A model generated the notes under the pieces. It saw nothing but the letters and a program-made list of their open reading frames with translations. It was not told the origin of the DNA and ran no database searches. The position numbers and the translations under genes are program-made. 64,000 nt of DNA, taken from contig OY970393.1 of the NCBI GenBank assembly GCA_963720465.1, positions 320,001 to 384,000 on the forward strand. The letters are read 5' to 3'. Position 1 is the stretch's first letter. Every line of letters starts with the position of its first letter. This stretch comes from Methanobacteriota archaeon. Lineage in GTDB: Archaea > Halobacteriota > Bog-38 > Methanoflorentales > Methanoflorentaceae. Shown one piece after another: positions 9,590 through 28,699 of the stretch.

Positions 9590-9868
9590 CATCTAACACT
9601 CTTGAAACTGGAAGTGAGGGAAAGCATGCATTTTTTATCGTCATTAGCGAACTATACCAAAAAGTGACAGTGTTTTAAAACAGAGAGAAGAAGTCTCAAA
9701 AAACAGATGCAGATGTAGCAGGCTTCGGCGGAGTCTTTGTTAAAAACGCGTCGGATTCCACGAAACAGTCAGAGGCAGACTCACGCTCGAAAAGCACAGC
9801 AGAAAGCTTTATTATCAATACTCGGCTAGTAAGCTGTGCTGCGTCAGGCAGTCGCTTTGCGTGCGCAA
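9590..9868 (+). pseudogene. Frameshifted int(N) remnant of element A
   Basis: DNA similar to 26845-27124 (LETGSEGKHAFFIV vs FETEHEGKQAFLIV); 9776-9868 near-identical to 27032-27124. Confidence 0.75.
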
Positions 9869-9908
9869 GCCCGGGTAGTGTAGCGGCCTATCATGGAGCC
9901 CTGTCGAG
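9869..9908 (+). repeat. tRNA-Asp 5' half, exact 40-bp copy (left att of element B)
   Basis: gcccgggtagtgtagcggcctatcatggagccctgtcgag identical to 27125-27164; no T-arm follows. Confidence 0.92.
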
Positions 9909-9981
9909 CGCTCCTTCTGTTTTTGAAGCTCTTTTTGCCTTTAAAGGAGTTTATAGATCTCTTACTCCAATTGAGTCAGAT

Positions 9982-10953
9982 TTGATCGGTGACAAGACAA
10001 GGATAACGCGCCCAAACGATTCAGTGAACGGTCAAAGCCTCGCTTCGCTCCAATTGACATTCTCGCTAAATCAACTTAATCATTACAAAAAATGGCGTAT
10101 AGAAGGTCTTGATCGGAAAAGCAGTAACTGGATGAACAAAGCGGCTGAGATTGTTTGGAACTGTACGCAGGGCATTATCAGCGAGATAACAATGGATGCG
10201 GTGCGGGATGTTGCCTTAACCAAATATACGTGCGTTTATTCAAAACGAAAGGTATTGTATTTCGCCAAAGGTCTTCTCAAATATCTTACTAAAACAACCT
10301 TCGACACTCGTTTTCAGTCGTTTGAACTCTTCTTGGCCATGCCTAAGGTGCTCAAAACGCGGAAGCACGTGACGAGCCGCATCGTGACTACAGAAGACGT
10401 TGAAAACGTGCTTAAAGCAATTGAACGGGCGTATAACGGCGGGCGAATTGACGCCTCTCATTATCACAACTACAACGCCTTAGTGTTATTCGGCGCGTTT
10501 ACAGGGCAACGACCTTTGGCAACAATAGCACGACTAAGAGTTGGCCAGTTCGAGGAAGCTGTAAAGATGCAGAAACCGTTCGTCGATATTCTTCCGGAGC
10601 AAGACAAAATTCGGATGCAACACTACTGCCCTCTTCACCCACAAGTTGTAGAGGCGATATTGCCAGTTTTAGATAGCCGGCGAGATAGCGAGACTGTTTT
10701 TGAGCAGCTTTCGTTTCAAGAGTGGCTTAAGCACACCAACATTCGGTTGCTGCACGGCGGCGCTCGCATAGTCAACGGAGACCTAAGAAAGTTTTGTGAG
10801 CAACATAGCGATATCATTCAGTGGGATCAGTCAAACAAGAATTACATTCTCACTCACGGCGTTTCCGGAGTTGATTGGCGGTTTTACAAACATCCGCTGC
10901 CTGAGCACGTGTACGACGTATATATGCAGTATTGGGCGGCTGTGCGATTCTGA
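9982..10953 (+). CDS. Tyrosine integrase catalytic part, int(C) of element B
   Basis: FTGQRP (R), QDKIR (K), GDLRK, LTHG, WRFYKH (Y); frame is open from 9679 through the tRNA half. Confidence 0.88.
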   Translation: MIGDKTRITRPNDSVNGQSLASLQLTFSLNQLNHYKKWRIEGLDRKSSNWMNKAAEIVWNCTQGIISEITMDAVRDVALTKYTCVYSKRKVLYFAKGLLKYLTKTTFDTRFQSFELFLAMPKVLKTRKHVTSRIVTTEDVENVLKAIERAYNGGRIDASHYHNYNALVLFGAFTGQRPLATIARLRVGQFEEAVKMQKPFVDILPEQDKIRMQHYCPLHPQVVEAILPVLDSRRDSETVFEQLSFQEWLKHTNIRLLHGGARIVNGDLRKFCEQHSDIIQWDQSNKNYILTHGVSGVDWRFYKHPLPEHVYDVYMQYWAAVRF

Positions 10954-11011
10954 TTCAATGCAAAAAAAGAAGGAAAAGAAAGCGCGAACGCTACCTACTA
11001 TTCACGCAGAC

Positions 11012-11353
11012 TTACCGCTTCACCGCTGCCATCTGTTCTGCTTTGGCCTTGAGAACCTGCCGCGCGAGTTCCTTTCCGGTTTCGTAATCTAAAACTTCGT
11101 GCACCTCGCTCTCACTCCATGGGAAGTTAGCGAACGCGCCCGCGAACAAGCCTTTGGCGTCTGCGGTGCTAATTGCGTATCCTGAGACTGCGTTTGCGAA
11201 CCAGCCGACCTCGAGTAGTCGACCACTCTTTAGCCCTTGGTCAATTCCTGCCCACAGCATCTCATTCAACTTTAAACCTTCAGCCGGATCAATCGGCCAC
11301 GGCGCATTCGGGTTCAAACGCCAAAGCGTTATATACTTCGGTATATCCCTCAC
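11012..11353 (-). CDS. Hypothetical protein (DUF3303-like), homolog of 62408-62719
   Basis: Shared pattern W...P..P.E..KL...GL..G.L...G....GYAIS. Confidence 0.7.
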   Translation of the reverse strand: MRDIPKYITLWRLNPNAPWPIDPAEGLKLNEMLWAGIDQGLKSGRLLEVGWFANAVSGYAISTADAKGLFAGAFANFPWSESEVHEVLDYETGKELARQVLKAKAEQMAAVKR

Positions 11354-11512
11354 CTCCTTTGACGTAGGCGGCAGTTGTTAGCCGCCGCTCAAAAACAAGT
11401 AAAAAGGCGCGTTAAAGGAATAAGTGTTGTTGTTACAGTCGCTTGTTACAGAGATTGACGTGATTTTTCAGTCGCGGAGCGACACACAATTTTGCAGTTC
11501 AATGACTAGAAG

Positions 11513-11640
11513 ACCAGCTAAATAAGAATCACATTCTCACTCATGGCGTTTCAGGAGTTGATTGGCGATTCCACAAACACCCTCTTCCCGCTTCGGTGTG
11601 ACGCCTATCTGAAATACTGGAGAGTTGTGAGACTCGACGC
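11513..11640 (+). repeat. Integrase 3'-tail copy T1
   Basis: Encodes NKNHILTHGVSGVDWRFHKHPLPASV..YLKYW. Confidence 0.85.
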
Positions 11641-11666
11641 TTTTGCCCAGTTAAAAAGGCCGCTCG

Positions 11667-11939
11667 CTATTCCTTGCCTCGCTTGAGTTTCTGATATTCT
11701 CGTTCAGTGATCCTGTCTGTCATTCCACTCCCCATAAAGACGCTCGCGCCGTGTGCAACTAATCCGATTCCCCAAAAACCGAGCACAAAGACGAACCACG
11801 GGAACCCGGCACCTGTAAACCACCATACGGCGACGAGAAAAAGGTTCACCACTACATAAATTGTGAAATGGATATAGAATCCGACCTTTTCTTCAGCCCG
11901 CTTTCGGGCCAGTCTCATCAGCTCTTCATCGCTTTGCAC
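11667..11939 (-). CDS. 2TM-domain membrane protein
   Basis: FYIHFTIYVVVNLFL...W...WGIGLVAH. Confidence 0.85.
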   Translation of the reverse strand: MQSDEELMRLARKRAEEKVGFYIHFTIYVVVNLFLVAVWWFTGAGFPWFVFVLGFWGIGLVAHGASVFMGSGMTDRITEREYQKLKRGKE

Positions 11940-11986
11940 TATTTCACCTCCGAGATATGGTCTCAGATTGGATCATGCTTTGTTCG

Positions 11987-12409
11987 TCAACTCCACTCGT
12001 AGAACACATTGGTTCCGACCTTATCGTCGCCCCCGCCTTCCACGACGCAGATGGTGCGGTTGATCCACGCAAGCTTCTCAGACGTCGTCATGAAGGTCAC
12101 GGTGCCCGTGAGCTTCCCTCCCGCGCCAGGGGCTTTTCCTGCATAGCAGAGTTTCCAGACTACGGAATCGCCGTCAGTCGTGGTCATGACCCCTTGCGCG
12201 GTGCCCGTTGTTATGCCCGTGGGCCGTACAAGATTGCGCATAGTTCCCATATTGGTGGCCTTGACGCCTTTGGCCCTTCCAAAGCCGGTAATCTCGCCAG
12301 TTACGCTATACTCAGATTCAACGCCTTCGGATCCTACGGATTTTATGGCAAACCCTCTTGGAGTGATTTTTTCCTCAAATAGCTTCTCTCCTATGGCCAA
12401 AATCTTCAC
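11987..12409 (-). CDS. Hypothetical beta-rich protein; paralog of 47435-47857
   Basis: 124/140 aa identical to the paralog by manual count. Confidence 0.8.
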   Translation of the reverse strand: MKILAIGEKLFEEKITPRGFAIKSVGSEGVESEYSVTGEITGFGRAKGVKATNMGTMRNLVRPTGITTGTAQGVMTTTDGDSVVWKLCYAGKAPGAGGKLTGTVTFMTTSEKLAWINRTICVVEGGGDDKVGTNVFYEWS

Positions 12410-12500
12410 CTGTTGCGCTGATTCTGCCTTCAGTATTTATTAGCTACCCCCAACGCGAGCGAAAAAAAGCAGATTGACGCACGCGGAGCAAGCATTCTCA

Positions 12501-12562
12501 ACATAAGCTGCCTGAGCAGGTCTACGACGTATATATAAAATATTGGCAAAATACCCAGCTAG
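12501..12562 (+). repeat. Integrase 3'-tail copy T2
   Basis: cataagctgcctgagcaggtctacgacgtatatataaaatattgg. Confidence 0.8.
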
Positions 12563-12607
12563 AAAATTAAACTGTCGCTAACAGTTTGATCAAATGAACA
12601 CTGAAGC

Positions 12608-12805
12608 GTGAGGAGTAAAGCCTGGGTTAACCTCTTTGTGAGTGCTCTTATCATCGCTACCATCATCGTTGCAGTCACCGATGCTCTTGAATTTTATGTT
12701 GTCTGGAGTGGAAAAGCAAAAATAACGCCATTGTTCGTTATCTTGGTTATCGTAGTGACGATGGTACCTATGGCAATCAACCTCTGGGTTCACATTTTCA
12801 GGTAG
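12608..12805 (+). CDS. Small two-TM protein; paralog at 47036-47233
   Basis: Frame conserved in both copies. Confidence 0.65.
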   Translation: MRSKAWVNLFVSALIIATIIVAVTDALEFYVVWSGKAKITPLFVILVIVVTMVPMAINLWVHIFR

Positions 12806-12860
12806 CTTGGCAAGGCGCCATATCGCGGCTCATAAAAGGATTAGAGTCGAGTAGGGTACC

Positions 12861-12930
12861 TACCAGCATCAGCTCCCAGATTCAATGCATGATATCTACA
12901 TGAATTATTGGGTAGATGTGCGTTTAACGA
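12861..12930 (+). repeat. Integrase 3'-tail copy T3
   Basis: Encodes YQHQLPDSMHDIYMNYWVDVRL. Confidence 0.8.
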
Positions 12931-13072
12931 CCTAAGCTCATTTCTTATGCTTCCTCCGGGTCACAGCAGCGCGATCAATGAACAACGTTTTTGTTTGCCC
13001 GCCCATTTTGGTGTACATCGGAAGACCGTTTGTCAGGCACGCACGAGGAAACTCGATCTGAGTGGCGTAGAG
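12915..13072 (+). pseudogene. Leader and first codons of a third methyltransferase copy, truncated
   Basis: Matches 15373-15530; ends at KLDLSGVE. Confidence 0.75.
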
Positions 13073-13168
13073 GCTCCGACTCTTAATCACGCGTGAACCC
13101 CATTCGCGCTTATAATTAATTCGGGGATCGTGGCACCGAGTCTAGCAATTATGACCATCCTTGGTTAA

Positions 13169-13726
13169 TTGAATCTAGCAAGTGGCGGTGCTGTTCCCAA
13201 GCCAACTTATAGAATCTCAACGAACACAGTGATGAGGGCTGTGGTGAACACCAGCTTTATAATAAGGCCAATGTCTCGTAATGATTTTAGCGAGCTTACG
13301 GAAGTTATAGATACGTCTTTTTTATGGTTTGTAAGGTCTTTGGCGCTTCATAGCGTGCGAGAAGGGCAACAAGTGCTTATAAGCGAAGCGCAAGGAACAG
13401 CGGTTGGATTTGTTAAACTAACCAATTTTCAAGTGGGTAGCGGTAAGTTCGGGCGCATACAATGGATTGCGGTTCACCCGCAATTTCGCAGAAAAGGAAT
13501 TGCGACTGCACTCGTGAATGCTGGATTTGAGTCTTTGACACACGCAGGGGCAAAAGCTGTTTTTGTTACGGTGAGGAGGAGAAATACTGCGTCTTTAACA
13601 GTATTTCGCAGCCAGGGCTTTAGAAAAATAGGATTTTTGGAACTCTGGCCGCTTTTCGGGTTGCGGATATTCGAGTTTTATAGAGAAATTTGGCTTGCCC
13701 CTTGGATACTTGTTTTAATGCAATGA
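13169..13726 (+). CDS. GNAT family N-acetyltransferase (true start probably later)
   Basis: AVHPQFRRKGIATAL; N..SL..FRSQGF. Confidence 0.85.
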   Translation: MNLASGGAVPKPTYRISTNTVMRAVVNTSFIIRPMSRNDFSELTEVIDTSFLWFVRSLALHSVREGQQVLISEAQGTAVGFVKLTNFQVGSGKFGRIQWIAVHPQFRRKGIATALVNAGFESLTHAGAKAVFVTVRRRNTASLTVFRSQGFRKIGFLELWPLFGLRIFEFYREIWLAPWILVLMQ

Positions 13727-13790
13727 TTAGTTTGGCAGCGCACACAACAAAAAGTTAGGCTAAATACGCTAAAGATCCTTGCAATACCGT

Positions 13791-13932
13791 GATACGATCG
13801 GGTGTGATCAATCAAATCGATCGTATGCTTGACTCACGGAGTTCGCGGTGTCGACGGGAAGCAGCACAAGCATCCGCTGCCGGAACACGTGTACGACGTG
13901 TATATGCGATATTGGGCGGATGTGCGATTCAC
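13791..13932 (+). repeat. Integrase 3'-tail copy T4
   Basis: Encodes LTHGVRGVDGKQHKHPLPEHVYDVYMRYWADVRF. Confidence 0.9.
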
Positions 13933-13995
13933 ACCGTGGAAAGACCTGTAGTGACTGCTGACAGGTGAAAAGATAACATAACAACGGGAGGTTAA

Positions 13996-14451
13996 TCACA
14001 GGCTTTTTTCTTTCAATCCACGCGCAAATACTCGTGCGTGCTCTAAATCTTCCTCGTTTGGCCTTCCTTTGTTAATCCCTCCGACGAGTCTCAAAGGCCC
14101 GACCGTATCCCATCCCTTGCACGAGAATTCACCAACAATAGCGAATCCTCGGCTCTCGAGTAGTTCCTTAAAAGCAGCGTAGTGTTTTGTCCCCCCTCTG
14201 CCACTCGTGGAGAACACAAAGGCCTGTTTTTCTGTGACAACGGGAAGTGCCTCGGCAAACTGCGTGATGGTCTTGTGGAACTTCATGCCGTAGATGCCGG
14301 AACCAAACCCGACGAGATCATAAGTCGTCACATTGTCAGCTTGTGCCTGATTGACAGGAACAAGATCTGCCGCCAACTCTTCTGCCATCACCTTCGCTAT
14401 TTTTTCCGTGTTCTGGTGGTGGATAGAAGCATAAACAATCAATGACTTCAT
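13996..14451 (-). CDS. Flavodoxin family protein
   Basis: IVYASIHHQNTEKIA, GFGSGIY, FSTSG, GRPNEEDL. Confidence 0.88.
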   Translation of the reverse strand: MKSLIVYASIHHQNTEKIAKVMAEELAADLVPVNQAQADNVTTYDLVGFGSGIYGMKFHKTITQFAEALPVVTEKQAFVFSTSGRGGTKHYAAFKELLESRGFAIVGEFSCKGWDTVGPLRLVGGINKGRPNEEDLEHARVFARGLKEKSL

Positions 14452-14694
14452 GACGGAAGTCTGATAGCGCTAATCTTATATTAGCAATAAAGGCCAGCTA
14501 GCGACCAGTTGTGACGATTTACAGCGTCTCACATTATAGGGAGAGCGCAGACTTGTTCTATACGTTTTATGAGCACGTTATGCACGCTCTTTCTTCTGTG
14601 AAGTCGAAAGGTGACTTATTAGTAAAGGAGCGCAGCAATATTTATATTAGTTAAACCTATTAAGCTGTATTAGATTGAAATAAGGTGATATAAG

Positions 14695-14988
14695 GTGGAT
14701 AACCAGAACAATGAACAGACGAGCTGTATAGACGTGCACTATGAGCGTGACAATAAGAGGCTGGCTGGAGCGGTGTGTGTGGCGCTCAGCAAGAATGTAG
14801 GGAGAAAAGATCGCAAGGTTGACCTCATCTTCATGCCGGAGGAGGAACATGCTTTTTCGGTGAGGAGCACTACTGAACTGATAAACATTCTCGATCATTG
14901 GAAGGTGTCGTTCGAAGAGCGAAAGCGGGTTTTTGACTTCGTTGCTGAGCGGTTGCGCATGCTTGCTGGTGAGGACACAGTAGCGTAG
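14695..14988 (+). CDS. Hypothetical protein
   Basis: 97-aa ORF with aggtga RBS-like signal; lies just before an int(N) remnant. Confidence 0.5.
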   Translation: MDNQNNEQTSCIDVHYERDNKRLAGAVCVALSKNVGRKDRKVDLIFMPEEEHAFSVRSTTELINILDHWKVSFEERKRVFDFVAERLRMLAGEDTVA

Positions 14989-15005
14989 TAAAGGGAAGGA
15001 AGTTT

Positions 15006-15160
15006 GTGGAGTTTAGGGAACATCCAAAATCCGCAAGCTCTCAACTAAAAAGATAGGATCTACCACAAATCAGACTACCTCCGCGGCTTGCTAACACCGT
15101 CGACCAAAAAATCGATATCTTCGAAACCGAGCACACTGGCACTATAGCTCTTTTTGGAAG
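15006..15160 (+). pseudogene. int(N) remnant
   Basis: GTSKIRKLSTK..PQIRLPPRLANTVDQKIDIFETEH vs GKSKIGKLSAK..YPQLRLPLQYANTVGEVADVFETEH (ORF 26740). Confidence 0.75.
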
Positions 15161-15195
15161 TGGGTCAAACGAAGGAAGATCCCGATGTCACAGTT

Positions 15196-15392
15196 TCCCG
15201 GCATTTCGTGCTTGGTGACCTGCGGAGGTTGTGCGAAGAACAAGGCGATACGATAGGGTGGGTCAATCAAATCGCGGTATATTATGACGCACGGCGTCAG
15301 CGGTATCGACTGGAAGCACTATAGCATCCGCTGCCGGCTAACGTGTACGACGTCTATATGCAGTACTGGGCGGATGTGCGTTTAACGATCTA
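15196..15392 (+). repeat. Integrase 3'-tail copy T5
   Basis: HFVLGDLRRLCEEQGD...MTHGVSGIDWKHY..HPLPANVYDVYMQYWADVRL, with indels. Confidence 0.9.
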
Positions 15393-15503
15393 AGCTCGTT
15401 TCTTATGCTTCTTCTCGGTCACAGTAGCGCGGGGAACGAACAATGTTTTTACTTAGCCAGCCCATTTTGGTGTACAATCGGAAGACATTCGTAAGGTAGT
15501 ACG

Positions 15504-16304
15504 ATGAAACTTGATCTGAGTGGCGTAGAGAAGACGTTACTCGTTCCTCTGTGGGGGCGGGCAAAACTTAGTCGAGAGAACCCTTCCATCCTTAACGATA
15601 CGAAGGCGACTGAACTCGTTGAACAGCTTGATTACGATTTTTCGAGGTTCGACAAAACTCTCGGCATACTCGGAAATCTTATGTTCGCGGCAATAGCGAA
15701 GCATGTCGACGAGAAGACCCGCGCGTACATCGCTGAGCATCCCAAAGCGTCGGTCATTGATCTTGGGGCGGGCCTTGATACTACATATTACCGGGTCGAC
15801 AACGGATCGATTCACTGGTACGACCTTGACCTTCCTGCGGCTATCGACCTTCGACGGCGACTGATTCCCGAAGCCGCTCGGTCGACGAGCATCGCAAAAT
15901 CATTGCTGGATACCAGTTGGTTTGACGATATTACTGACACTGCGAACGGCGTATTTATGATCGCAGCAGGAGTGCTCATCTTTTTTCAAGAGTCTGACAT
16001 TAAATCGTTCTTCTCATCGCTAGCAGACAGTCTCCCCGGCATGGAGATCGTGTTTAATACGCAGTCAACATTCGCCAAACTGAGGAGCAATTGGGGCATG
16101 CGGAGGATGGGGATGAAAACAACGAAATGGGCCATGAAGGATGCACGCACGATAACAAAATGGGATAATCGCATCAAGGTTTTGGATCAGCTTCCCTTGT
16201 TTAAGAACATTCCACGAAACCCTGCGTGGGGTAGCTCGGTCAAGAGATTGATGAATCTTTCCGACAGCAATGGAATGATGAACGTTGTTCACCTGCGAGT
16301 ATAG
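15504..16304 (+). CDS. Class I SAM methyltransferase (LCM/TcmP-like)
   Basis: TLLVPLWGRA, VIDLGAGLDT, WYDLDLP. Confidence 0.88.
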   Translation: MKLDLSGVEKTLLVPLWGRAKLSRENPSILNDTKATELVEQLDYDFSRFDKTLGILGNLMFAAIAKHVDEKTRAYIAEHPKASVIDLGAGLDTTYYRVDNGSIHWYDLDLPAAIDLRRRLIPEAARSTSIAKSLLDTSWFDDITDTANGVFMIAAGVLIFFQESDIKSFFSSLADSLPGMEIVFNTQSTFAKLRSNWGMRRMGMKTTKWAMKDARTITKWDNRIKVLDQLPLFKNIPRNPAWGSSVKRLMNLSDSNGMMNVVHLRV

Positions 16305-16383
16305 CGTTCATAGTTTGGCTGACATAACTAGAATTGACGACCATAGAAAACGTCAGGGGCACTGGCTTAGTTTTACACGTGCT

Positions 16384-16954
16384 TCACCATACGAATGGGA
16401 TTAGTCTCCACGTATGCTTCTTGTACGCTGCGTACTGATCTCCAAAAGACGCGACGAGCATGCGCTCTTCGACTTCAATGCGATAGCGGTACGCTGCGAC
16501 AAAGGTCAACGTTACGAGTACCTGCGACAATCCAATTGACCGTCGCCAATCCTGCCCCTACCCATAATACGATAACCCCCAGATATCCGGGGTGACGCAC
16601 GTACTTGTACGGCCCTTCCTGAACGACGCGCTGCCCCTCTGATATGTGTAACGTGCGAGTGTAGAATCTACCGAGCGTCTGAAATGCCCACACCCGAAGC
16701 GTGATGCCGCAGAGCATAACGACGATGCCGATCCAACCGATAACATCGACCATGACGCCTAGTTGGAAGTAGTTGAGCGCGTTAGCGACAATGACAAGAA
16801 TAATGTTTATGAAGAGCGCCAGACTCAGGAGCCGCGTGCTCGCCTGATCGAACGGGCCTCCCTTGAGCGTTGTAGCTGCTTGGCCCTTTCGCCTGCTTTC
16901 GGTGATCGCGTAGTACACGATCAAGATGAGGTATGCAACAAGTATCGAGTACAT
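16384..16954 (-). pseudogene. Isoprenylcysteine carboxyl methyltransferase family, frameshifted near 16520
   Basis: GPYKYVRHPGY; C-terminus RIEVEERMLVASFGDQYAAYKKHTWRLIPFVW is in another frame. Confidence 0.8.
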
Positions 16955-17167
16955 AGAGCTGGGATCTTTGTGTGATCAGTGATTGAACGACGTAGACTTA
17001 TGCTTCTTTCTGTTTGAATTTTCCAAGCTCATGCAGTTTGGCGTTAACCCAATAATCTTTTCTTAAGCACAACCGATGTCTCGATTTGCCGCGTAGGAGT
17101 GAATGACATCTTCTTCTGCTCCTCAAGCACATGATCCTTCGCTGCGACTGCGGTTCAAGTCAACAAC

Positions 17168-17857
17168 CTACAACATCATCGCCGACGTCACGCCACGTGC
17201 GATAAGGAAGATGCCGACGATGAAGAACACAGCGGCAATGAGCTGACTGCCGTGTTTCTTTAAGAAACGGATGATCGGATCGAAGATGCGGTCGAAATTT
17301 CGGGGAGTCACGGCATAAATGGCGAGTGGCCCCCAACACCAGCATAGCGCTATGGCCATTACTAGGAAAAATGCGATTGCTTTGTCGTGAACGGATAGCA
17401 CGACGACCCCGATATCTTTGCTTGCGGCGAGAGCTGGAAGCGATGAGAAGATATTGCCGAAGCCGAAGGCGATTCCCATTGAAACCAGTGCTCCTGAGCC
17501 CATTGTCGTCGCGTCAAAAGTTTTTGATTCCTGTTTCTTCAGGAGCGAACGAGCGCTTGCGTAGAGGAGCAGGAGACCGAGGATGAAGTCGATCGCCACC
17601 GTCGCCAACGACGGCTTGCCACTGGTCGTCGTCAGGCTTCCGATGGCTAGAAAAACTAGGCATATCAGCGAAAATACGACACAGTACGTTGCGACAAAGA
17701 TCGCTCCTTTTTTGAGCCGGTGTTCCGCTGAGCTCAGTACGGTCATGACGGTTATGACCGCCAACGGGCTTATCATGGCCGCGATGGCAAGTGGTATTAC
17801 GACCGCGAGAAGTTGGGGTAGGCTGACGAGCTCGCCTCCGAATATGGGGATCGCCAT
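17168..17857 (-). CDS. GAP/Sap-family membrane protein
   Basis: PLAIAAMISP, about six TM helices, LysE-like layout. Confidence 0.65.
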   Translation of the reverse strand: MAIPIFGGELVSLPQLLAVVIPLAIAAMISPLAVITVMTVLSSAEHRLKKGAIFVATYCVVFSLICLVFLAIGSLTTTSGKPSLATVAIDFILGLLLLYASARSLLKKQESKTFDATTMGSGALVSMGIAFGFGNIFSSLPALAASKDIGVVVLSVHDKAIAFFLVMAIALCWCWGPLAIYAVTPRNFDRIFDPIIRFLKKHGSQLIAAVFFIVGIFLIARGVTSAMML

Positions 17858-17906
17858 TGCTTCACTTCCGTTCTTCAGAGCATAGCAGCCATTTAAGCGC
17901 CGTAAC

Positions 17907-19123: not shown

Positions 19124-19201
19124 GAATAAGATTAATCGACATTACGCCAATGTCTCTTTGAAAATCCGTGATCGGCTCGCGGGTTGAGTTTTGCACGCGA
19201 C

Positions 19202-19345
19202 GGAATCTCATCACTTTAAACTCCGCTCCTCGCGATAACCTTCTTCGTAGATTTCGAGCACAGCAATCAAGCTTTTCTGCATCGTGTGTGCACATCACCT
19301 GCGCCAACACGTCAATGATCTGGTGAAGAGGGGTCTCTTCCTTTC
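19202..19345 (-). repeat. Backbone family 2 C-terminal fragment
   Basis: PLHQIIDVLAQVMCTHDAEKL. Confidence 0.8.
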
Positions 19346-19497
19346 GGCGTCTGCACTCGGCGCCTCTTGACATCACTTTCAATCGGAGTCTTTATCGTGC
19401 CTTCTGACACGCGTTGGGGCGTCTATATATACTGCGAATAATCGTGTGTATACAAAATCACTTGGAGTAGATGGGCGCAAAAGGGTGATAATCGAAT

Positions 19498-20373
19498 ATG
19501 GTGCAGGAAGAAGCCTATGAAAAAATTAGTTCCACTGCTAAGCTAGTAGCGCACATAAGGAGCTTTACCGATATTCCGTTTGCTAAGGAGATAGCCGTAG
19601 CAAGCGGAGCAGAGAAAGACTTTCAAACATTAGCAGGCAAGAGCGCGGAATTTATGACTCAGTCTGCTTTCAATTTGGAGGCACGCTGCAAAACTACTGA
19701 TCAGATCATTGCACGTTACCATATTACACAAGTTTTGGAAATCGCTGCTGGACTTTCACCGCGTGGTCTCGCAATGACCGAAAATCCTGACGTAGTCTAT
19801 GTAGCCACTGATTTGCCGCAGATTTTAGAACAAGAAAAAGCAATTGCCGAATCCATATTTGCAAAATTGAACATACATCGTTCAAACCTGTATTACCGGG
19901 TTGCAAATGCACTTGATCGAGAGAGCTTGTTGCAAGCGGCTATTCCTTTTCGATCAGACAAGCCTGTTGCGATTATCACGGAGGGCTTACTTCCGTACCT
20001 TACCAGCGGAGAAAAAGAAACCTTGGCAGGCAACATCCATGCCCTTCTTAGACAATATGACGGAGTATGGGTTACACCGGATGTGAACACCAAACAAACC
20101 CTCAAGTTTTTTTCTCAAGCAGATGACACTATGCAGCAACGGATGCAGAATGTATCTGGCGCGACTGGGCGTGACATCGAAACGAACACATTTGAAGACG
20201 AAAATGCTGTGCGACAGTTTTTCACCAATGCTGGATTTACGATCGAAGAATATCCTTGGTCAAATGTTCTTGAAGATCTGTCTTCGGTGAAACTCTCGAA
20301 TCTCAATCGAGAGGAAATTCTTGAGATTCTACAGATGCTTATGACTTTGATTTTAACAATCCGTTCGAGCTGA
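19498..20373 (+). CDS. Class I SAM methyltransferase (LCM-like)
   Basis: ISSTAKLVA, LEIAAGLSPRG, TDLP, ITEGLLPYL. Confidence 0.85.
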   Translation: MVQEEAYEKISSTAKLVAHIRSFTDIPFAKEIAVASGAEKDFQTLAGKSAEFMTQSAFNLEARCKTTDQIIARYHITQVLEIAAGLSPRGLAMTENPDVVYVATDLPQILEQEKAIAESIFAKLNIHRSNLYYRVANALDRESLLQAAIPFRSDKPVAIITEGLLPYLTSGEKETLAGNIHALLRQYDGVWVTPDVNTKQTLKFFSQADDTMQQRMQNVSGATGRDIETNTFEDENAVRQFFTNAGFTIEEYPWSNVLEDLSSVKLSNLNREEILEILQMLMTLILTIRSS

Positions 20374-20429
20374 AAGCCGCTTTGCGCCGCGTATTCGTGT
20401 CACCATTTCCCTAGCTCATGACCCATCAT

Positions 20430-21000
20430 TTCTTTTTCGATTCCTTCGATCTCTACCCATTCAGCAGCGCGGTGGCTAAACACGTAGTTGCGCCTGAAAA
20501 AGCCCTTGGAGCACGCTGCGGTTCATTATAACTGCAAGATTGATGCAACCAAAGGGTTCGAATTGGAATCTCATCACTTGGAAGTTCGTTCTTCGTGGTA
20601 CCCGCCTTCGTAGATTTCGAGCACTGAAATCGCAAGCTTCTCGGCGTCGTGCGTGCACATCTCCTGCTGCAACACGTCAATGATCTGGAGGAGAGGTGGC
20701 TCAGCAGCCTTGTCAACGTCTGGGTGCCCACGCGCCCTCCGCTAAAATCGATGTGACAAATGTGGCGAGAGACTGGGCAAGCTGTTCTTTCAACTCAAGC
20801 GTAAAAGTTCGCAAATACCACCCATCAGGCAGTTACACTTGCTGAGGCAGTGCCTACAGGCTAAGCTGCAAACGACCACGTGCTGCAGCTTAGCATCTCG
20901 ACACGCTCTTTGGAGGCTATCTTTTAACCGATCGAACGGCCCTGTGTGGATGCACGCCGCAAAGAGGTTGTAAAGAGCATGCTTCTGCTAGTTGCTTCTT
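20430..21000 (-). pseudogene. Degenerate backbone family 2 copy plus start of its downstream gene
   Basis: Colinear with 22050-22620. Confidence 0.8.
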
Positions 21001-21157
21001 GTTGATACGAAACGAGAACAGTGCTTACCGATTCTGCTATAGTCGATGCGGCCGATTGTTGCGCCCCACCGAAAGGAAATCGGAGACACACTGTCAGAGC
21101 AAATCGCAAGATAGATCAAAAGGAAAGCCCCCTTAACGCTTAACAAATGCAAGGGAG

Positions 21158-21766
21158 GTGAAACACGTGAACGAAGACAAATGCGCAAAATGCGGCACTC
21201 CCGCTGCACCAGGTACAAAGTTTTGCGAGAGCTGTGGCGCACCGCTACCAGCCGCTGCACAACCCGCGCAGGGTTCAGCTTCTGCGGCAGCCGCTTCCGC
21301 GTATGCAACGCCAGAGCCCCAAGTGCAGTATCAGGGCGTCGCCATCCGTTTTGTGGCGCTCATCATCGATGGCCTTATTTTAGGGATTATCGACTACATA
21401 CTCATTTTTCTGTTTACTGGATCAGCCACTACGATTGATAGGTCAACTGGCGCAGTTTCGCTTGGGCCGGCGTACCCTGCGTACTACGTTGCTTTGGGTA
21501 TTGTGCTCGGACTGCTCTACTTTACGCTTCTCCTAGGGCGTTATGGCCAATCGGTCGGTATGATGGCAGTCAAGATAAAAGTAGTCAGCGAGGCGAACAG
21601 CGGACCGATCACATACGGAGCAGCGTTTATCCGCACGATTCTGCTGTATATTGACCAGATTCCGTACGTCATTCCGTACCTGCTCGGCGCAATCCTTATT
21701 TGGACCTCAGACAAGAAACAGCGTCTCGGCGATCGTGTCGCGCACACCGTCGTGGTGAAAGCTTGA
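21158..21766 (+). CDS. Zinc-ribbon plus RDD family membrane protein
   Basis: CAKCG/FCESCG; RFVALIID; GQSVGM; QRLGDRVAHT. Confidence 0.9.
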   Translation: MKHVNEDKCAKCGTPAAPGTKFCESCGAPLPAAAQPAQGSASAAAASAYATPEPQVQYQGVAIRFVALIIDGLILGIIDYILIFLFTGSATTIDRSTGAVSLGPAYPAYYVALGIVLGLLYFTLLLGRYGQSVGMMAVKIKVVSEANSGPITYGAAFIRTILLYIDQIPYVIPYLLGAILIWTSDKKQRLGDRVAHTVVVKA

Positions 21767-21989
21767 TAGGGGCTGTCACCCCTTTTTTCTCTTTTTTAGT
21801 CACCAATAAAGTCTGCTTCGCTGTCTCTCTGAGCCCGCAAACACGATCCAGAGAACAGCCGCCTCCAATAAGACGATTTGGAACTGCTTCCACAAGGGTT
21901 CAATTTGTGAAGTAGGTGATGGCCCGACTGCCAGAGTGCGCTGGAGTAAAAAAACAGCGAAACGGTGCGAGAGCGCCTGCAACAAAAGA

Positions 21990-22155
21990 CCTTCGTCTTA
22001 TCTTAGCGTATTCCTTTCGCTCTCTTCTTAGCTCCTTGTTCGTCATTTTTTTGTCGATTTCCTTTGATTTCTAAAGCCCGTTCAGAAGCATGGTGGCAAA
22101 AGCACGCAGTTACGCCTTAACAAGCCCTTGGATGCGCGCAGCAGTTCTTCATAAC
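21990..22155 (-). pseudogene. Remnant of backbone gene 'NGxxKSKEIEK'
   Basis: IQGLVKA*LRAFATMLLNGL*KSKEIDKK...RKEYA; repeated at 20430, 26355, 30890, 31680, 58215. Confidence 0.7.
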
Positions 22156-22194
22156 TACAAGAGGGGCGCAACTAAGGGTTCGAGAGGAATCTCG

Positions 22195-22644
22195 TCACTT
22201 GGAAGTTCGTTCTTGGTGGTACCCACCTTTGTAGATTTCCAGCACCGAAATCGCAAGCTTCTCGGCGTCGTGCGTGCACATCACCTGCTGCAACACTTCA
22301 ATGATCTGGCGAAGCGGTGGCTCAGCACCCTCTTTATCATCTACGCGCCCACTCGGGTGAGTCAGAATCGATGTGACAAACGTAGCAAGGGTGTGTGCAA
22401 GCTGTTCTTTTAACTCAAGCGCGAACGTTCGCAAATACGACCCGTCAAGCCGTTCGGCCCTGCCGAGGCAGTAGCTGCAGGCCGCTCCGTATATGACTAC
22501 ATACCTGAGCTGCGCGTCTCGCCGGGCCCGTTCGACGCTGCCAATCAGCTCTTCCAGCGGCACGGTGCGAATGTAGGCAGCGAAAAGGTTGTAAAGAGCC
22601 TGCTTCGTCTCATTTGTGTCTTTCTTAACATTAACTCCTTGCAC
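22195..22644 (-). CDS. Backbone family 2 protein, intact copy (149 aa, helical, CSYC)
   Basis: Only intact member of a family with five further fragments in the window. Confidence 0.7.
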   Translation of the reverse strand: MQGVNVKKDTNETKQALYNLFAAYIRTVPLEELIGSVERARRDAQLRYVVIYGAACSYCLGRAERLDGSYLRTFALELKEQLAHTLATFVTSILTHPSGRVDDKEGAEPPLRQIIEVLQQVMCTHDAEKLAISVLEIYKGGYHQERTSK

Positions 22645-23048
22645 AAAGGTTGAATCTGTGCTGTAAGTGATAACGCGACTGTAAGCACGTGCTGAAAGTG
22701 AATTACGAGATTAGAGTGTTTGTTTTTAGTTACTGCTAATCTCGCAGATCTCAAGTAACGACATCGCCACCTTTTGTGCATCGTACTCCACGTGCCTGTG
22801 CAGCACCTTCGCTATCTCATTAAGGGTCGATTCATCTCCTTAGGGCAGGGGCCAGACCGCGTAAACCTGCGCCGCCTGCTGTGCCACGGCGCGACGTCGA
22901 CCGATCCCTCCGTAAGGAGTTGCGACCCAAGCGCGGCGCTTAGCTGTGAACCGATGCTGAAGACTGACGGTCATCACCTGCAAAAAACCGAAAAATGCGC
23001 GAACACATAAACTATATGACCCTGTCTGTGCGAGAGTAGGTTCGCATT

Positions 23049-23774
23049 ATGCACGCTGCACTGCTGACCCTCCATGCACCCTTGGCATCCGCCTATTTCG
23101 GCGGGTTTGACTACGACGTTACCCACTTCATAAGGGGGCTCAACAACGGCGGTCTTCTCAATACGCTATTTTGGTGGGTCACGTTCACGGGCAGCATCAC
23201 CTTCATGGTACTCATCACGATCGCACTCTACCTCGCCGGTCTCCGCAAAGAAGCGCTTGTCTTCGCTATTATCTTCATAATAACGACTGCGTTCGCGACC
23301 GCAGTGAAGTACGCCATTGCACGCCCACGGCCGAGCGATTTGGGCGTACCACCAGAGGCTGAGCCGTCGTTTCCGAGCGCCCACACCGCGAACGCCTTTG
23401 CCTTCGCGACGACGCTTTCGTCTTATCACCGAAAGTTCACTATTGTGCTGTTCGCGTGGGCCATTCTTGTGGGATTTAGCAGGCTCTACCTAGGCCTCCA
23501 TTACTTCACCGACATCATCGGGGGGGCCATCCTCGGCATCGTCGTTAGCCTCGTCGTGACCCATGCCGCCGGGCGCGTTGATGGAGAGCTCACACGCATT
23601 GTGCACGAATCGCCGATGCTAACGACGTGGAAGGGCGTCTTCAAGGTGCCGTTGGTCGTCGCGCTCCAGTTTTTCCAAGTAGCATACGCGCTGGCCACTG
23701 AGCTGATCCGAGAGGTTTTCAGCATCATCCATCGCAAAAGTGGGGGTAAACCGACGTTGAGGGGAGTTGAATGA
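23049..23774 (+). CDS. PAP2 family phosphatase
   Basis: KYAIARPRP, SFPSAH, SRLYLGLHYFTD. Confidence 0.92.
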   Translation: MHAALLTLHAPLASAYFGGFDYDVTHFIRGLNNGGLLNTLFWWVTFTGSITFMVLITIALYLAGLRKEALVFAIIFIITTAFATAVKYAIARPRPSDLGVPPEAEPSFPSAHTANAFAFATTLSSYHRKFTIVLFAWAILVGFSRLYLGLHYFTDIIGGAILGIVVSLVVTHAAGRVDGELTRIVHESPMLTTWKGVFKVPLVVALQFFQVAYALATELIREVFSIIHRKSGGKPTLRGVE

Positions 23775-24023
23775 GGTTATGACGGAAACTTTTTTTCTAG
23801 CCGACGCTTGACCGTAAGGAGGTACACCTCATGGACTAATCATGAAAATTATTGAATGACAAGCTCTAACGGAACGCACGAGCTGCGAGGTGATACGCAA
23901 AGCTTAGACCGGCATAATTACAGCGAACAACTCAGCTAGATGGAGTGCGCTTTATCTCACGGCGTGCACGCAAGAGCACGTGATGTTCCTTTGCTGGCCG
24001 GTTAAACTACCCACTCGATGTAG

Positions 24024-24299
24024 TTACGGCAGTAGCCCTTGAACAATGCCCTTCAGTTCAGCCAGCATCTCTGCCAAGGCGTTTCCGCTAAAGATTTCAT
24101 TCGGGTTCTGCAGGGATTTGCTCAGAAACCCGTGGATGAGTCGCGTGACTGAGTCGGTTATCTGTTGGTTCACCATCGTGTAGCGAGACGCAGGAGCCTG
24201 CGTTGGTGAAAGCGGCGTGGCGCTGACGGCGAGCGGCATCGCGAGTAAGAGCACGATAGTAACGATAAAAGCGAGCGGCACAATACGAGTTCGGTTCAT
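24024..24299 (-). CDS. Small secreted protein
   Basis: aggaggtga RBS, signal peptide MNRTRIVPLAF...AVSA. Confidence 0.6.
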   Translation of the reverse strand: MNRTRIVPLAFIVTIVLLLAMPLAVSATPLSPTQAPASRYTMVNQQITDSVTRLIHGFLSKSLQNPNEIFSGNALAEMLAELKGIVQGLLP

Positions 24300-24390
24300 C
24301 GACCAATCACCTCCTGTAGTAGTATGCACCTAACAGGGGGAAAGCAGCAATAAATATTGGGGCTAAGCTGCTCGGCGCGCAGTGCCGGCG

Positions 24391-24648
24391 CTATCTTTTC
24401 GGTTTGGTAGTGACGAGCGCCACGAGAGCAAGCAGTGACGCAATAATGGCCACAAGTTCCGCGTAGGCGATATCCGCTGCACCGCCCATCACATCACTCG
24501 CCGCTAAGATGATGACTCCCACGATATACACACCGATAAAGAGGGGCTGCACGTTTCTGTTGCCCCGCACTATGTAAACGAATTGAATTATCCACCCAAG
24601 AGCGATAAGGCCGAATCCGACAAGCATTAAGGAACTAACCACGAACAA
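24391..24648 (-). CDS. Small membrane protein
   Basis: Three hydrophobic helices. Confidence 0.55.
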   Translation of the reverse strand: MFVVSSLMLVGFGLIALGWIIQFVYIVRGNRNVQPLFIGVYIVGVIILAASDVMGGAADIAYAELVAIIASLLALVALVTTKPKR

Positions 24649-24704
24649 GCATAGGCGGATAACCGATTTTATAAGTTTCTCTTTTTCTTGACTACAAACG
24701 CGCC

Positions 24705-24850
24705 GAAGATGTGGCGGAGAGGTGGCTCAGCAGCACTTTCCGCGTTTAGGCGCACGCGGCGGTGCCAGAATCGATGTGACAAACGTAGCGAGGGTTTGGG
24801 CCAGCTGTTCTTTTAACTCAAGCGCAAACGTTCGCAGGCATGACCCTTGC
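24705..24850 (-). repeat. Backbone family 2 internal fragment abutting the ClC stop codon
   Basis: LRTFALELKEQLAQTLATFVTSIL. Confidence 0.8.
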
Positions 24851-26236
24851 CTATCGCGGTCGCTGCCGCACTCTAAAATGTTTGGCAATGAAACCCTTGA
24901 TTCTATTAATGACCTTCAGGCCGGCTTTCGTGACACTCCCCGCTCTGGGCTGCACCGTCGGCTCACACTCCGCAACCTCCTTACCGATCTGAACCTGAAT
25001 AGACCGGGATTTCTCCGTCGCAAGCACCTGCGATGGATAGATGCTTCGGTGACCAGACATCACGTAGCTGACAACGCACGCTACTGCCGCGTACGGCGCG
25101 ACTGCTGGCCCAAAGAGCTCAATTGATATGATACTCGCGGCGATGGGAGTGTTGGTGGCTCCCGCAAGAACGGCTACGAGGCCAATTGCCGCAAACGTCG
25201 CCGAATTCAAGCCAAATACCTGCGCGAAGAGAGCACCGGCCGTTGAACCGATAAAGAAGATCGGGGTGATGATACCGCCGCTTCCCCCAAAGCCCAACGT
25301 TATGCTCGTGAACACGATCTTTAACGGGAAGGCGTACCAGACGGCGTGCTGCCCCTGCAGCGTAGCCTGAGTCGTGGCTAACCCGAGCCCAAGGTACTGC
25401 GTCGAGAATATCAGGGTCAACAGTATGAGTGCCGCCCCGCCGATGATGCCCTTGGCAGGCGCCCATATGGGCAGACGTTCTGCCGCCTTTTTGAAGAGAT
25501 TGAAGAGCTCTATGAGGAGGAGCGCGACGATCCCAAAGAAGATGCCTGCAACAATCACTTGCGCCAAGAAGAACCCGCTGAAGACGGGCACGAACTGGAG
25601 GGGACTGTAGAAATAGGTAATGCCAAGGGCAGCCGACACCTGATAGCTGACGATCCCCGCGATAAACGCGGGGAGAAGCACGTCGTACATTAGGCCTCCT
25701 ACAAAGAGGACTTCGACCCCGAAGATGGCACCGCCCAGAGGCGTACCAAAGACGGAGGCAAATCCGGCGCTGACCCCACAGATGACCAATTTCCGACGGT
25801 CACGGTCGTCGAACTTCAGGAGATCGCCAAATAGTGAAGAGAGCCCCGCCCCTATCTGGGCGCCCGGCTCTTCTTTGCCTGCCGAGCCCCCTGACGCGAT
25901 AGTGATGAGCGTGGCAGCGAGCTTTACCAAAACCGTTGACGGCTTTATTTTCCCGGATCGTTTATGAAGGGCATCAATAATCATCGCCGTGCCGTGCCCT
26001 TCATCGCCTGGGGTAAGATATTTCGTCATCGCGCTGCTGACAAGGAGCGCTAGGGGAAGGAGGAGAAAGTAATAGGGGAACTGGCCGGTGAGGGCAATGC
26101 TGTAGTTCAAGACCTTAAGGAAAACGGCTACCGCTAAGCCGACGGCGACTCCAGCGAGTGTGCCTAGCACGCACCACTTGCAAACGCTGATGAATAAGAC
26201 GATTTGCCTAGGGAGGATATTAGACGCATTCGACAC
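24851..26236 (-). CDS. ClC chloride channel family protein
   Basis: GGSAGKEEP, GGSGGIITP; start uncertain. Confidence 0.9.
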   Translation of the reverse strand: MSNASNILPRQIVLFISVCKWCVLGTLAGVAVGLAVAVFLKVLNYSIALTGQFPYYFLLLPLALLVSSAMTKYLTPGDEGHGTAMIIDALHKRSGKIKPSTVLVKLAATLITIASGGSAGKEEPGAQIGAGLSSLFGDLLKFDDRDRRKLVICGVSAGFASVFGTPLGGAIFGVEVLFVGGLMYDVLLPAFIAGIVSYQVSAALGITYFYSPLQFVPVFSGFFLAQVIVAGIFFGIVALLLIELFNLFKKAAERLPIWAPAKGIIGGAALILLTLIFSTQYLGLGLATTQATLQGQHAVWYAFPLKIVFTSITLGFGGSGGIITPIFFIGSTAGALFAQVFGLNSATFAAIGLVAVLAGATNTPIAASIISIELFGPAVAPYAAVACVVSYVMSGHRSIYPSQVLATEKSRSIQVQIGKEVAECEPTVQPRAGSVTKAGLKVINRIKGFIAKHFRVRQRPR

Positions 26237-26354
26237 AGGTAAAAAAGACCGAGCAAGGCTTTAATGGTTACTCTTTGGTCGCACCCAGAAGTCGACTTTG
26301 GGCGCGGGGCCACAAGGGTTTGCTTGCTTCCTAATTTTCATGCTTATGGTCGAT

Positions 26355-26510
26355 TAGCGTATTCCTTTCGACTTCACCATAACTTCTATATATCATCTCT
26401 TTTTTCGATTTCCTTTGATTTCAAAGGCCCGTTCAGAATCGTGGTGGCAAAAGCACGTTGTTGCGCCTTAAAGAGCCCTTGCAGCGCAACTGCCGCGAAT
26501 CATGACGGTT
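26355..26510 (-). repeat. 'NGxxKSKEIEK' backbone fragment
   Basis: tcgatttcctttgatttc...gcccgttcagaa...ggtggcaaaagcacg shared with 22055-22106. Confidence 0.8.
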
Positions 26511-26739
26511 ATGCTTGAACGGCGCTTCTAGAGACACATGCAAGCGATCTGCACGCACAAGATAAGCATCCAAAGCTCAAAACCCCCTATGCTCTCTCGA
26601 TAGCTAGTTGCCGCTGGGCGTGGTTGAATGTCAACGTTTCGAATCTCTCTTGCGCGACACACACAGCTGTTAAGCAAACTCTTATTCTAGTAACCCGATA
26701 ATAATACCCGGTTATCGTTGGTTCGTACTTGGTGTCGTT

Positions 26740-27164
26740 ATGCAGCACATCGGAAAGTCAAAAATCGGCAAGTTATCTGCCAAAGGGAATGACTACCCAC
26801 AACTTCGCTTGCCTCTACAATACGCAAATACTGTAGGCGAGGTAGCTGATGTCTTTGAGACTGAACACGAGGGAAAACAAGCATTTCTCATCGTGACAGA
26901 ACATAGTGTGCCAAAGGAAGACACGGTTTTAAAACCGAGAGAAGAAGTTTTAAAACCATGTGCAGATTTGGCACAGCCTTTAACGGAAATCCTTCCTAGA
27001 AGTGCACATGCTTCCGCGGAACCGTTCGCGACAGACTCGCGCTCGAAAAGCACCGCAGAAAGCTTTATTATCAATACTCGGCTAGTAAGCTGTGCTGCGT
27101 CAGGCAGTCGCTTTGCGTGCGCAAGCCCGGGTAGTGTAGCGGCCTATCATGGAGCCCTGTCGAG
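26740..27164 (+). CDS. int(N) of element B (YPQLRLP domain); reads through tRNA promoter and 5' half
   Basis: ORF 26740-27219 crosses the tRNA in the same phase as the frame leading into ORF 9982. Confidence 0.78.
27055..27075 (+). promoter_or_regulatory. BRE/TATA-like tRNA promoter
   Basis: gcagaaagctttattatcaa upstream of the tRNA; kept in all three copies (one substitution at 6020). Confidence 0.6.
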
Positions 27165-27197
27165 GCTCCGACTCGGGTTCAAATCCCGACTCGGGCG
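27125..27197 (+). tRNA. tRNA-Asp(GTC)
   Basis: Acceptor GCCCGGG/CTCGGGC+G; anticodon arm GGAGCC-CTGTCGA-GGCTCC; T-arm TCGGG-TTCAAAT-CCCGA; T-tract follows. Confidence 0.96.
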
Positions 27198-28696: not shown

Positions 28697-28699
28697 ATA

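Follow-up and report, generated by a model that had tools for sequence, protein, structure and literature searches.

Within a 64,000-nt stretch of an archaeal genome (Methanobacteriota archaeon, assembly GCA_963720465.1, contig OY970393.1, positions 320,001 to 384,000), here called the window, the gene for tRNA-Asp is overlapped by an open reading frame (ORF) that runs through its promoter region and on into the tRNA, while some 17 kb to the left the same promoter region and tRNA 5' half recur in front of the catalytic part of a tyrosine recombinase. How did an integrase gene (int) come to lie across the upstream region of the only tRNA-Asp gene of this organism, and which promoter serves that tRNA now? 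We consider it probable, with good confidence, that 9909-27124 is an island left by a circular element that entered the sole tRNA-Asp gene via its own self-splitting tyrosine integrase, and that the promoter and 5' half brought in by the element now serve the tRNA. Coordinates are positions in the window, and those marked 'genome' refer to the whole 2,313,764-bp single-contig genome.

The repeat and the split reading frame

ARAGORN placed tRNA-Asp(GTC) at 27125-27198 as the sole tRNA in the window; it is present in one copy among the 37 tRNAs of the 2,313,764-bp genome, and a DNA search of the whole genome found no second full-length copy. The original prediction, made from the letters of the window, had noted that the first 40 nt of this tRNA recur at the left end of a 17,256-bp segment, and this was borne out, 9869-9908 and 27125-27164 being identical at 40/40 positions, with two matches in none of 100 dinucleotide shuffles. 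Its claim of a further ~93 bp of near-identity upstream needs amending. The exact repeat is longer than had been claimed, covering 110 bp (9799-9908 vs 27055-27164) and containing a promoter-like motif resembling a transcription factor B recognition element (BRE) and TATA box, a leader and tRNA-Asp nt 1-40, and with its flanks it reaches 153 nt at 94% identity (9756-9908 vs 27012-27164). Sequence left of ~9798, however, where weaker homology extends to ~9592, is not part of the attachment (att) site but the decayed N-terminal part of the integrase, Int(N), of an older element.

The reading frames behave as predicted. ORF 26740-27219 reads ...STAESFIINTRLVSCAASGSRFACASPGSVAAYHGALS across promoter and tRNA, and the phase at 9868, that of the Int(N) ORF, stays open into ORF 9982-10953, which encodes the C-terminal part, Int(C). 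The last part of the Int(N) linker is encoded by promoter and leader, the int frame reading the TATA-like motif as ..ESFIIN.., in which the box itself is Phe-Ile-Ile. A virtual join of 26740-27164 to 9909-10953 gives 1470 nt, that is 489 codons plus a stop with no internal stops, the length of product foreseen for excision of the segment, and if translated it would yield one continuous integrase.

Unsplit homologues and the recombinase fold

A protein search gathered 532 relatives of this integrase. The original prediction hinged on full-length homologues that join the N-domain to the catalytic domain, and two natural unsplit proteins of this kind were found, P0040 (449 aa) and P0081 (439 aa), in which a YPxxRxP N-domain is followed by a short stretch translated from the 3' half of tRNA-Asp, in antisense for P0040 and in sense for P0081, and then by the recombinase. 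The joined 489-aa product is colinear with both, residues 1-489 matching 10-442 of P0040 at 49% identity and residues 3-487 matching 15-435 of P0081 at 47% identity. The N-domain is kept in the unsplit proteins, and in homologues the corresponding position of the protein is taken by other tRNA segments. Since the unsplit homologues are colinear with the joined product, the family would carry its att site inside the gene and split on integration. The locus thus behaves as that of an SSV-type 'suicidal' integrase, with attP within the int ORF and Int(N) and Int(C) in phase at opposite ends.

The structure of Int(C) was modelled with AlphaFold from a 29-sequence alignment (mean predicted local distance difference test score, pLDDT, 73; poor at 276-310). 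The top Foldseek matches to this model were all tyrosine recombinases (Tn1549 Int, lambda Int, archaeal XerA and Cre), the best with E 3.6e-3, prob 1.0 and template-modelling (TM) scores of 0.36-0.38. In VIA comparisons Int(C) gave Z 9.9 against lambda Int (root-mean-square deviation, rmsd, 9.4; 219 aligned), Z 9.6 against the lambda core-binding domain (rmsd 2.5; 88 aligned), Z 9.0 against archaeal XerA (rmsd 6.1; 228 aligned) and Z 9.8 against the catalytic domain 3nkh (rmsd 3.6; 145 aligned). As modelled, Int(C) has the two-domain fold of tyrosine recombinases, a helical core-binding domain followed by a catalytic domain. PHROG 216, annotated 'integrase', gave weak matches to Int(C) (E 3.8e-4) and to P0081 (E 9.4e-7). 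Neither half matched a Pfam model at E<=0.1 or a relevant NCBIfam model, and a profile of the family detected no recombinase in PDB sequences, which counts against the assignment. Within the 29 sequences R177 and K209 are invariant and R269, H292 and Y314 nearly so, in the expected order, these residues being assigned by alignment position only. In all ten pairs formed from five genomes (this one and four relatives) the dN/dS ratio (nonsynonymous to synonymous substitutions) of Int(C) was 0.08-0.18, with no stops, which shows purifying selection on Int(C).

In the predicted structure of Int(N), residues 1-55 form a confident strand-helix-strand-strand fold, and residues 56-128, including the promoter-encoded part, are predicted to be disordered (pLDDT 40-45). 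Foldseek returned nothing better than E 1.4 for the N-domain; an AbrB-like fold had been guessed for it, without support from Foldseek. A genome scan located 31 loci with relatives of the int family, in uncultured peat and bog archaeal metagenome-assembled genomes, a few Bathyarchaeia and one bacterial-labelled contig, and none in Thermococcales.

Occupied and empty sites in relatives

Thirty relatives were searched with the promoter and tRNA, and the loci so found were mapped for hypA, hypE, Int(N), Int(C) and the repeat. Among the 18 genomes of the genus, counting this one, the 5' side of tRNA-Asp is occupied in 11 (G000, G001, G002, G006, G007, G008, G009, G010, G011, G012 and G015), with the gene order hypA-hypE-left copy-Int(C)...Int(N)-right copy with full tRNA wherever the contig allows it to be followed; the architecture recurs while the contents of the islands differ. 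The original prediction also expected an empty hypE-tRNA-Asp site in relatives, and two were found. In G016, of the same genus, the 5' side is empty and the order is hypA-hypE-209 bp-tRNA-Asp, and in G018, of the sister genus, hypA-hypE is followed by the native promoter and tRNA-Asp, again with an empty 5' side. The remaining six of the 18 genomes are uninformative (incomplete assemblies, no match).

A third lineage of the integrase, P0081-type and using the 3' half in sense, lies downstream of the tRNA in G007, G009, G010 and G016. Some relatives have one intact tRNA-Asp with a 5'-type Int(N) on one side and a 3'-sense-type Int(C) on the other (L022 of G010 at 8843-10309, L032 of G009 and L005 of G007), and there an open frame leads from the promoter through the whole tRNA into the Int(C) of the other element (132 + 87 aa in G010; P0122 is 287 aa). 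Such frames across the tRNA into another element's Int(C) are raw material for hybrid integrases.

An element-borne copy of the tRNA promoter

Twenty-three copies of the promoter and half tRNA were aligned. Upstream of CGCAGAAAGCTTTA, the hypE-adjacent copies (at 6106 in this genome, G000, and in G002, G008, G010 and G015) have the 3' end of hypE and a spacer, and the element-borne copies have Int(N) linker coding sequence, so that homology between chromosome and element runs from just before CGCAGAAAGCTTTA to tRNA nt 40, ~111 bp. The empty sites G016 and G018 have the same AAAGCTTTA(A/T) box, at about -60 and at -100 respectively, with an integrase upstream in neither, and AAAGC(A/T)TTA-like boxes precede several other tRNA genes of the genome. 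On account of this homology boundary and of the same box at the empty sites, we infer that the promoter, leader and 5' half borne by the element are a copy of those of the native tRNA-Asp gene. The ~111-bp homology thus supports in silico the proposed supply of promoter and 5' half to the sole tRNA-Asp by the element, and the box would be active as a promoter in its present place.

The promoter-to-tRNA stretch is 91-99% identical between genomes and the adjoining Int(N) codons have a dS of 0.24-1.2, which points to constraint at the DNA level. Mismatches in tRNA nt 1-40 are absent from 11 of the 12 copies with a full tRNA, the twelfth, in G018, having one; the truncated copies have up to nine.

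A T-run was observed at 9919-9925, 10-13 nt past the half tRNA in the left copies, where it is T5 or longer in seven of 11 and T4 in three more. It resembles the T6-7 run that lies 4 nt past the real tRNA, and it also encodes a Phe of a conserved PPxF(E/D) stretch. This run could act as a stop for transcripts from the displaced promoter ahead of Int(C).

Table 1. Features of the tRNA-Asp locus and of the element-derived DNA around it (window coordinates).
Feature	Coordinates	Strand	Remarks
hypE	4941-5975	+	Chromosomal anchor gene left of the tRNA-Asp locus; hypA-hypE precede the locus in relatives
Oldest, chromosome-side copy of promoter, leader and tRNA-Asp nt 1-40	6020-6145 (start approximate)	+	Decayed
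Int(C) remnant of older element E1	6289-6483	+	Int(C) residues 47-115, 51% identity
E1 cargo	6787-9401		glnK 6787-7143 (-), amtB 7188-8420 (-), DUF6328 membrane protein 8916-9401 (+)
Decayed Int(N) of E1	9592-9867	+	52% identity to Int(N) residues 36-128, with stops
attL, left 110-bp copy	9799-9908	+	BRE/TATA-like motif at 9803, leader, tRNA nt 1-40 at 9869-9908
Int(C), core-binding and catalytic domains of tyrosine recombinase	9910-10953	+	Frame open from 9682; first start codon TTG 9982
Island body	10954-26739		Cargo and four copies of a repeated ORF family
Internal integrase remnants	11512-15384	+	Five Int(C) 3' tails and one Int(N) fragment
Int(N)	26740-27124	+	Folded N-domain residues 1-55 (YPQLRLP motif), then predicted disordered linker; ORF continues through tRNA to 27219
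attR, right 110-bp copy	27055-27164	+	Within Int(N) ORF; before and inside working tRNA
BRE/TATA-like motif AAAGCTTTATTATC	27059-27072	+	66 nt before tRNA nt 1
tRNA-Asp(GTC)	27125-27198	+	nt 1-40 and all upstream probably element-derived; nt 41-74 chromosomal
Int(N) of a different element, same integrase family	27199-27536	-	Abuts tRNA 3' end; left end of right-hand stack
Int(C) with one stop (44855-45796, 59% identity), preceded by partial tRNA 3'-half copy (45863-45887)	44855-45887	-	Internal junction of right stack

Proposed mechanism and its alternatives

In the mechanism which we favour, the element would have had, inside its int frame, an attachment site of ~110 bp that reproduced the tRNA-Asp gene of the host from its promoter through the 5' leader to nt 40 of the tRNA. 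Recombination with the chromosomal gene, probably by a site-specific rather than a homologous crossover, would split int, leaving Int(C) beside the left repeat and Int(N) beside the right, and would set the promoter, leader and 5' half of the element before the chromosomal 3' half. The working tRNA-Asp would then be a chimera whose transcription most likely starts at the element-borne promoter, the TATA box of which would double as the codons Phe-Ile-Ile of a disordered integrase linker, while the displaced native promoter and half tRNA would stay upstream and decay. The event would have been repeated, giving rise to the older element at 6146-9868, to further remnants in the island and to the related integrases stacked in the 3' half.

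Two of the alternatives concern the repeat itself. The tRNA could be read through from the integrase promoter, as proposed for pTN3, with the conserved upstream 70 bp serving recombination, as an unusually long att or as accessory binding sites, and not transcription. This would suit a leader between box and tRNA that is as conserved as the box, and a TATA-like box at -66, ~25 nt farther upstream than is the rule for tRNA genes of the genome, a distance that also weighs against promoter supply by the element. We nevertheless regard readthrough as unlikely, given that the same box occurs at the never-occupied site of G016 and also in G018, with no integrase upstream, that the pTN3 site, as given in the available text of PMC5495485, is merely 41 bp and lies inside the tRNA, and that the box decays before half tRNAs. 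Here the motif AAA[GCT]CTTTA is intact in 12/12 copies before a full tRNA vs 6/11 before a truncated one (Fisher p 0.014), a contrast whose significance is overstated because the motif was picked after the alignment had been viewed and the genomes are related. The repeat could also be a segmental duplication made by host recombination, for which 110 bp is long enough, the flanking ORFs then being unrelated to it. That origin is very improbable in view of the ORF halves, which are in phase and rebuild a protein of recombinase fold, of the same architecture in 11/18 genus genomes with differing island contents, and of the homologues that carry other tRNA segments at the same protein position.

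More weight must be given to the alternative that the 17,256 bp are a fossil stack, no longer mobile, in which the outer Int(C) and Int(N) stem from different insertions and the 489-aa gene is a chimera that never existed; we put this close to an even chance. Several results count against a single intact element. The segment contains, besides its outer int halves, five Int(C) tails and an Int(N) fragment, and its cargo is solely metabolic and membrane genes, with no replication, virion or transfer genes recognised in the island, and on these grounds the two intact int halves may come from different elements. Tandem stacking to the left, and likewise in G006, G011 and G015, also speaks for a fossil stack. 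Against it stand the repeat, which is perfect over 110 bp, the two int halves, which are stop-free where older copies in the window are full of stops, and the end-to-end colinearity of the joined product with natural proteins. The int halves are in phase at the ends of the segment, but the segment itself is a composite with integrase remnants inside it, rather than a single clean element. A fossil stack, being a statement about the history of the segment, is compatible with integration by a self-splitting integrase, which remains the mechanism we prefer.

Traces of excision and present-day mobility were also sought; that they were lacking is a point against, although it gives no verdict on mobility. 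The contigs of four runs (X1-X4), which may be the assembly's own source, were compared with 9400-27400 and contained no convincing circle or emptied site. The repeat and a variant Int(N) account for two 'goes back' joints in these contigs. Of the sequences checked against the genome, six loose-end strings fell on other copies of the repeat, and for the letters lying between the two sides of one joint no place was found. Viral contigs yielded no 5'-type gene that is intact and unsplit and lies on a free element. Among the 14 longer proteins matching Int(N) there was no intact full-length 5'-type integrase, P0015 (502 aa) being the sole uninterrupted full-length ORF, with an N-domain that looks degenerate. 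Of 80 metagenome loci kept, five had near-full-length contiguous matches, which are junctions or broken genes. In none of the five contiguous Int(N)-att-Int(C) junctions (G000, G011, G006, L066 and L067) is the N part intact, the frame being open for 47-84 aa upstream of the tRNA where ~128 are required. This would fit the view that breakage of the re-joined integrase is what allows a stack to survive. For excision of its own element, a split integrase depends on help in trans.

A ratchet by 5' targeting with a built-in promoter may be envisaged, which we put forward tentatively as something possible but doubtful. With the sole tRNA-Asp of the cell driven by the promoter and 5' half of the element, the native copy would decay (the displaced copy here has 7/40 mismatches and a mutated TATA region, and its equivalents in relatives have 4 to 9 mismatches), so that the oldest layer could not be lost without destroying an essential tRNA, and the locus would become a permanent landing pad that gathers cargo on both sides, ~61 kb around a 74-nt gene, with tandem stacks persisting only after the re-joined integrase is broken.

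Relation to known systems

SSV1 and other SSV-type (type I) integrases are alike in being self-splitting tyrosine recombinases at a tRNA gene, with Int(N) and Int(C) at the two ends. SSV-type sites lie in the 3' part of the tRNA. In contrast to this likeness of mechanism, no sequence similarity was detected, either by tblastn of the int family against 50,697 phage and archaeal-virus records or by the PDB profile search, and tblastn against a plasmid collection gave no match either.

Closer by description are the pTN3-like suicidal integrases of Thermococcales (pTN3, TKV4), which as described in the available text of PMC5495485 and PMC8371274 have attP in the int ORF and target a tRNA 5' half ending near nt 40-44, so that the tRNA is cut off from its native promoter. 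The pTN3-like trait of a tRNA 5' half as attB is found here too, the repeat ending at tRNA nt 40 with the intact tRNA on the Int(N) side. For pTN3 the accessible part of PMC5495485 gives a 41-bp shared site and a tRNA separated from its original promoter, and the tRNA is said there and in PMC8371274 to be expressed from the integrase promoter. In contrast to that 41-bp site within the tRNA, the stretch shared here measures 110-111 bp and takes in a copy of the BRE/TATA-like promoter and leader of the tRNA itself; the hosts, moreover, are mesophilic uncultured peat archaea instead of Thermococcales, and their elements stand in tandem stacks. The original prediction had assumed that split integrases sit mostly at tRNA 3' halves. 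This background does not stand as given, since targeting of the 5' half by a self-splitting integrase is already known from pTN3 (PMC5495485) and from AveSNP6_IE1 (PMC7253208).

AveSNP6_IE1, which uses a tRNA 5' end, belongs to the pT26-2 family, described in the available text of Badel et al. 2020 (PMC7253208) as promiscuous and switching tRNA targets. The present family is alike in using several targets, namely the 5' half of tRNA-Asp and, in both sense and antisense, its 3' half. According to the same available text, however, tandem integration of elements with suicidal integrases was observed in no data set of that study (PMC7253208), whereas here stacks are the rule and every re-joined junction gene that was examined is broken. 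Recombination at 5'-distal sites is considerably less frequent, and further cases, including that of Zhao and Williams 2002, are cited in the available part of Krupovic et al. 2019 (PMC6563490). A literature search for a promoter-bearing attP returned nothing relevant, which is weak evidence that the feature is unpublished. The bacterial element of Zhao and Williams is said to have a reversed target orientation and to carry the 5' part of the tRNA, so that it must supply a promoter; unlike the present one it is bacterial, and reportedly its integrase is unsplit and its promoter lies outside the coding frame.

Neither the self-splitting mechanism nor the 5' orientation is new. What differs from known systems is a separate int family without detected link to catalogued viruses or plasmids, a promoter-embedding 110-bp site, the tandem stacks, and the use of both tRNA halves by three lineages. 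Self-splitting integration at a 5' half is thereby extended from hyperthermophiles to a separate, unannotated family that is abundant in uncultured peat archaea. The 110-bp stretch would be under three constraints at once, as archaeal promoter and pre-tRNA, as recombination site and as coding sequence of a protein linker, and the locus shows how a tRNA gene that is essential and present once may become dependent on DNA of mobile elements. The tandem stacks provide material for the model of hybrid integrases and target switching set out in the available text of PMC7253208. For annotation, start-less or tRNA-overlapping ORFs of this kind should be called int halves.

The older layer and the right-hand stack

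The 17-kb island is the newest layer of a tandem stack. Directly after hypE lies the oldest copy of the promoter and half tRNA, with its tRNA part at 6106-6145, the mismatches mentioned above and a 16-bp duplication. This third copy, together with the Int(C) remnant and the decayed Int(N) listed in Table 1, identifies 6146-9868 as an older element, E1. Its amtB-glnK pair is a second copy, the other pair lying at genome 447-449 kb with 75% identity. The decayed Int(N), attL and Int(C) together form a broken 're-joined' integrase at the tandem junction.

To the right, the Int(N) that abuts the tRNA 3' end is P0040-type and entered the tRNA 3' half in antisense, P0040 itself reading the same antisense tRNA stretch. 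The distal copy of the 3' half lies at genome 387178-387219, just beyond the window, and the single tRNA-Asp gene is thus enclosed in ~61 kb of element-derived DNA. Three lineages of one family accordingly use the same tRNA-Asp, at its 5' half, its 3' half in sense and its 3' half in antisense.

The right-hand element begins, at 27671-29455, with genes for a DUF4238 protein (+) and a DUF5677 protein (-), which are sometimes paired in islands of defence type. Further along the right stack, 57612-57971 consists of nine overlapping copies with a 30-nt period, rich in ACC/ACA/ACG (a Thr/Pro-like coding repeat), and 46204-46750 is a tandem duplication of 271 nt at 92% identity. Elsewhere, at genome 721463-722559, a 92-nt 'tRNA-Leu(CAA)' call lies 9 nt past the end of an Int(N)-like domain and has a broken Int(C) behind it; the whole may be one unsplit int gene, with the tRNA call covering its att segment.

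The body of the island

The cargo of the island comprises genes for GNAT, flavodoxin, two LCM-type methyltransferases, ICMT, SfLAP-like, flavin reductase-like, RDD and PAP2 proteins and a ClC channel. The internal remnants are Int(C) 3' tails at 11512-11598, 12499-12546, 12813-12926, 13829-13930 and 15208-15384 and an Int(N) fragment at 15057-15155, and from these the island is read as a composite of several decayed elements. A family of repeated ORFs of ~90-150 aa, without a Pfam match, occurs at 17907-18308, 20453-20731, 22195-22644 and 24391-24648 (all on the minus strand), the copies sharing 73-85% DNA identity over 97 or more nt and each adjoining a different cargo gene.

Int(C) had 60 tblastn matches in the genome, most of them only to its last 30-80 residues. 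Sixteen such tails lie in the window (10889-15384 on the plus strand; 44855-62905, mostly minus), each with its end at the int stop codon. The idea of a recombination junction fixed within the last int codons was not confirmed, the homology of the 16 tails starting at variable points, ~25 to 100+ codons before the end. The abundance of tails may be due in large part to the better detectability of the most conserved motif; they may otherwise reflect deletions that inactivate re-joined integrases, or a preferred recombination zone. A pair of tails ~365 bp apart at 12500-12911 (+) is found again, inverted, at 46931-47343 (-) with nearly the same similarity profiles, and this recurrence of the paired tails in the left island and the right stack suggests a small module common to both.

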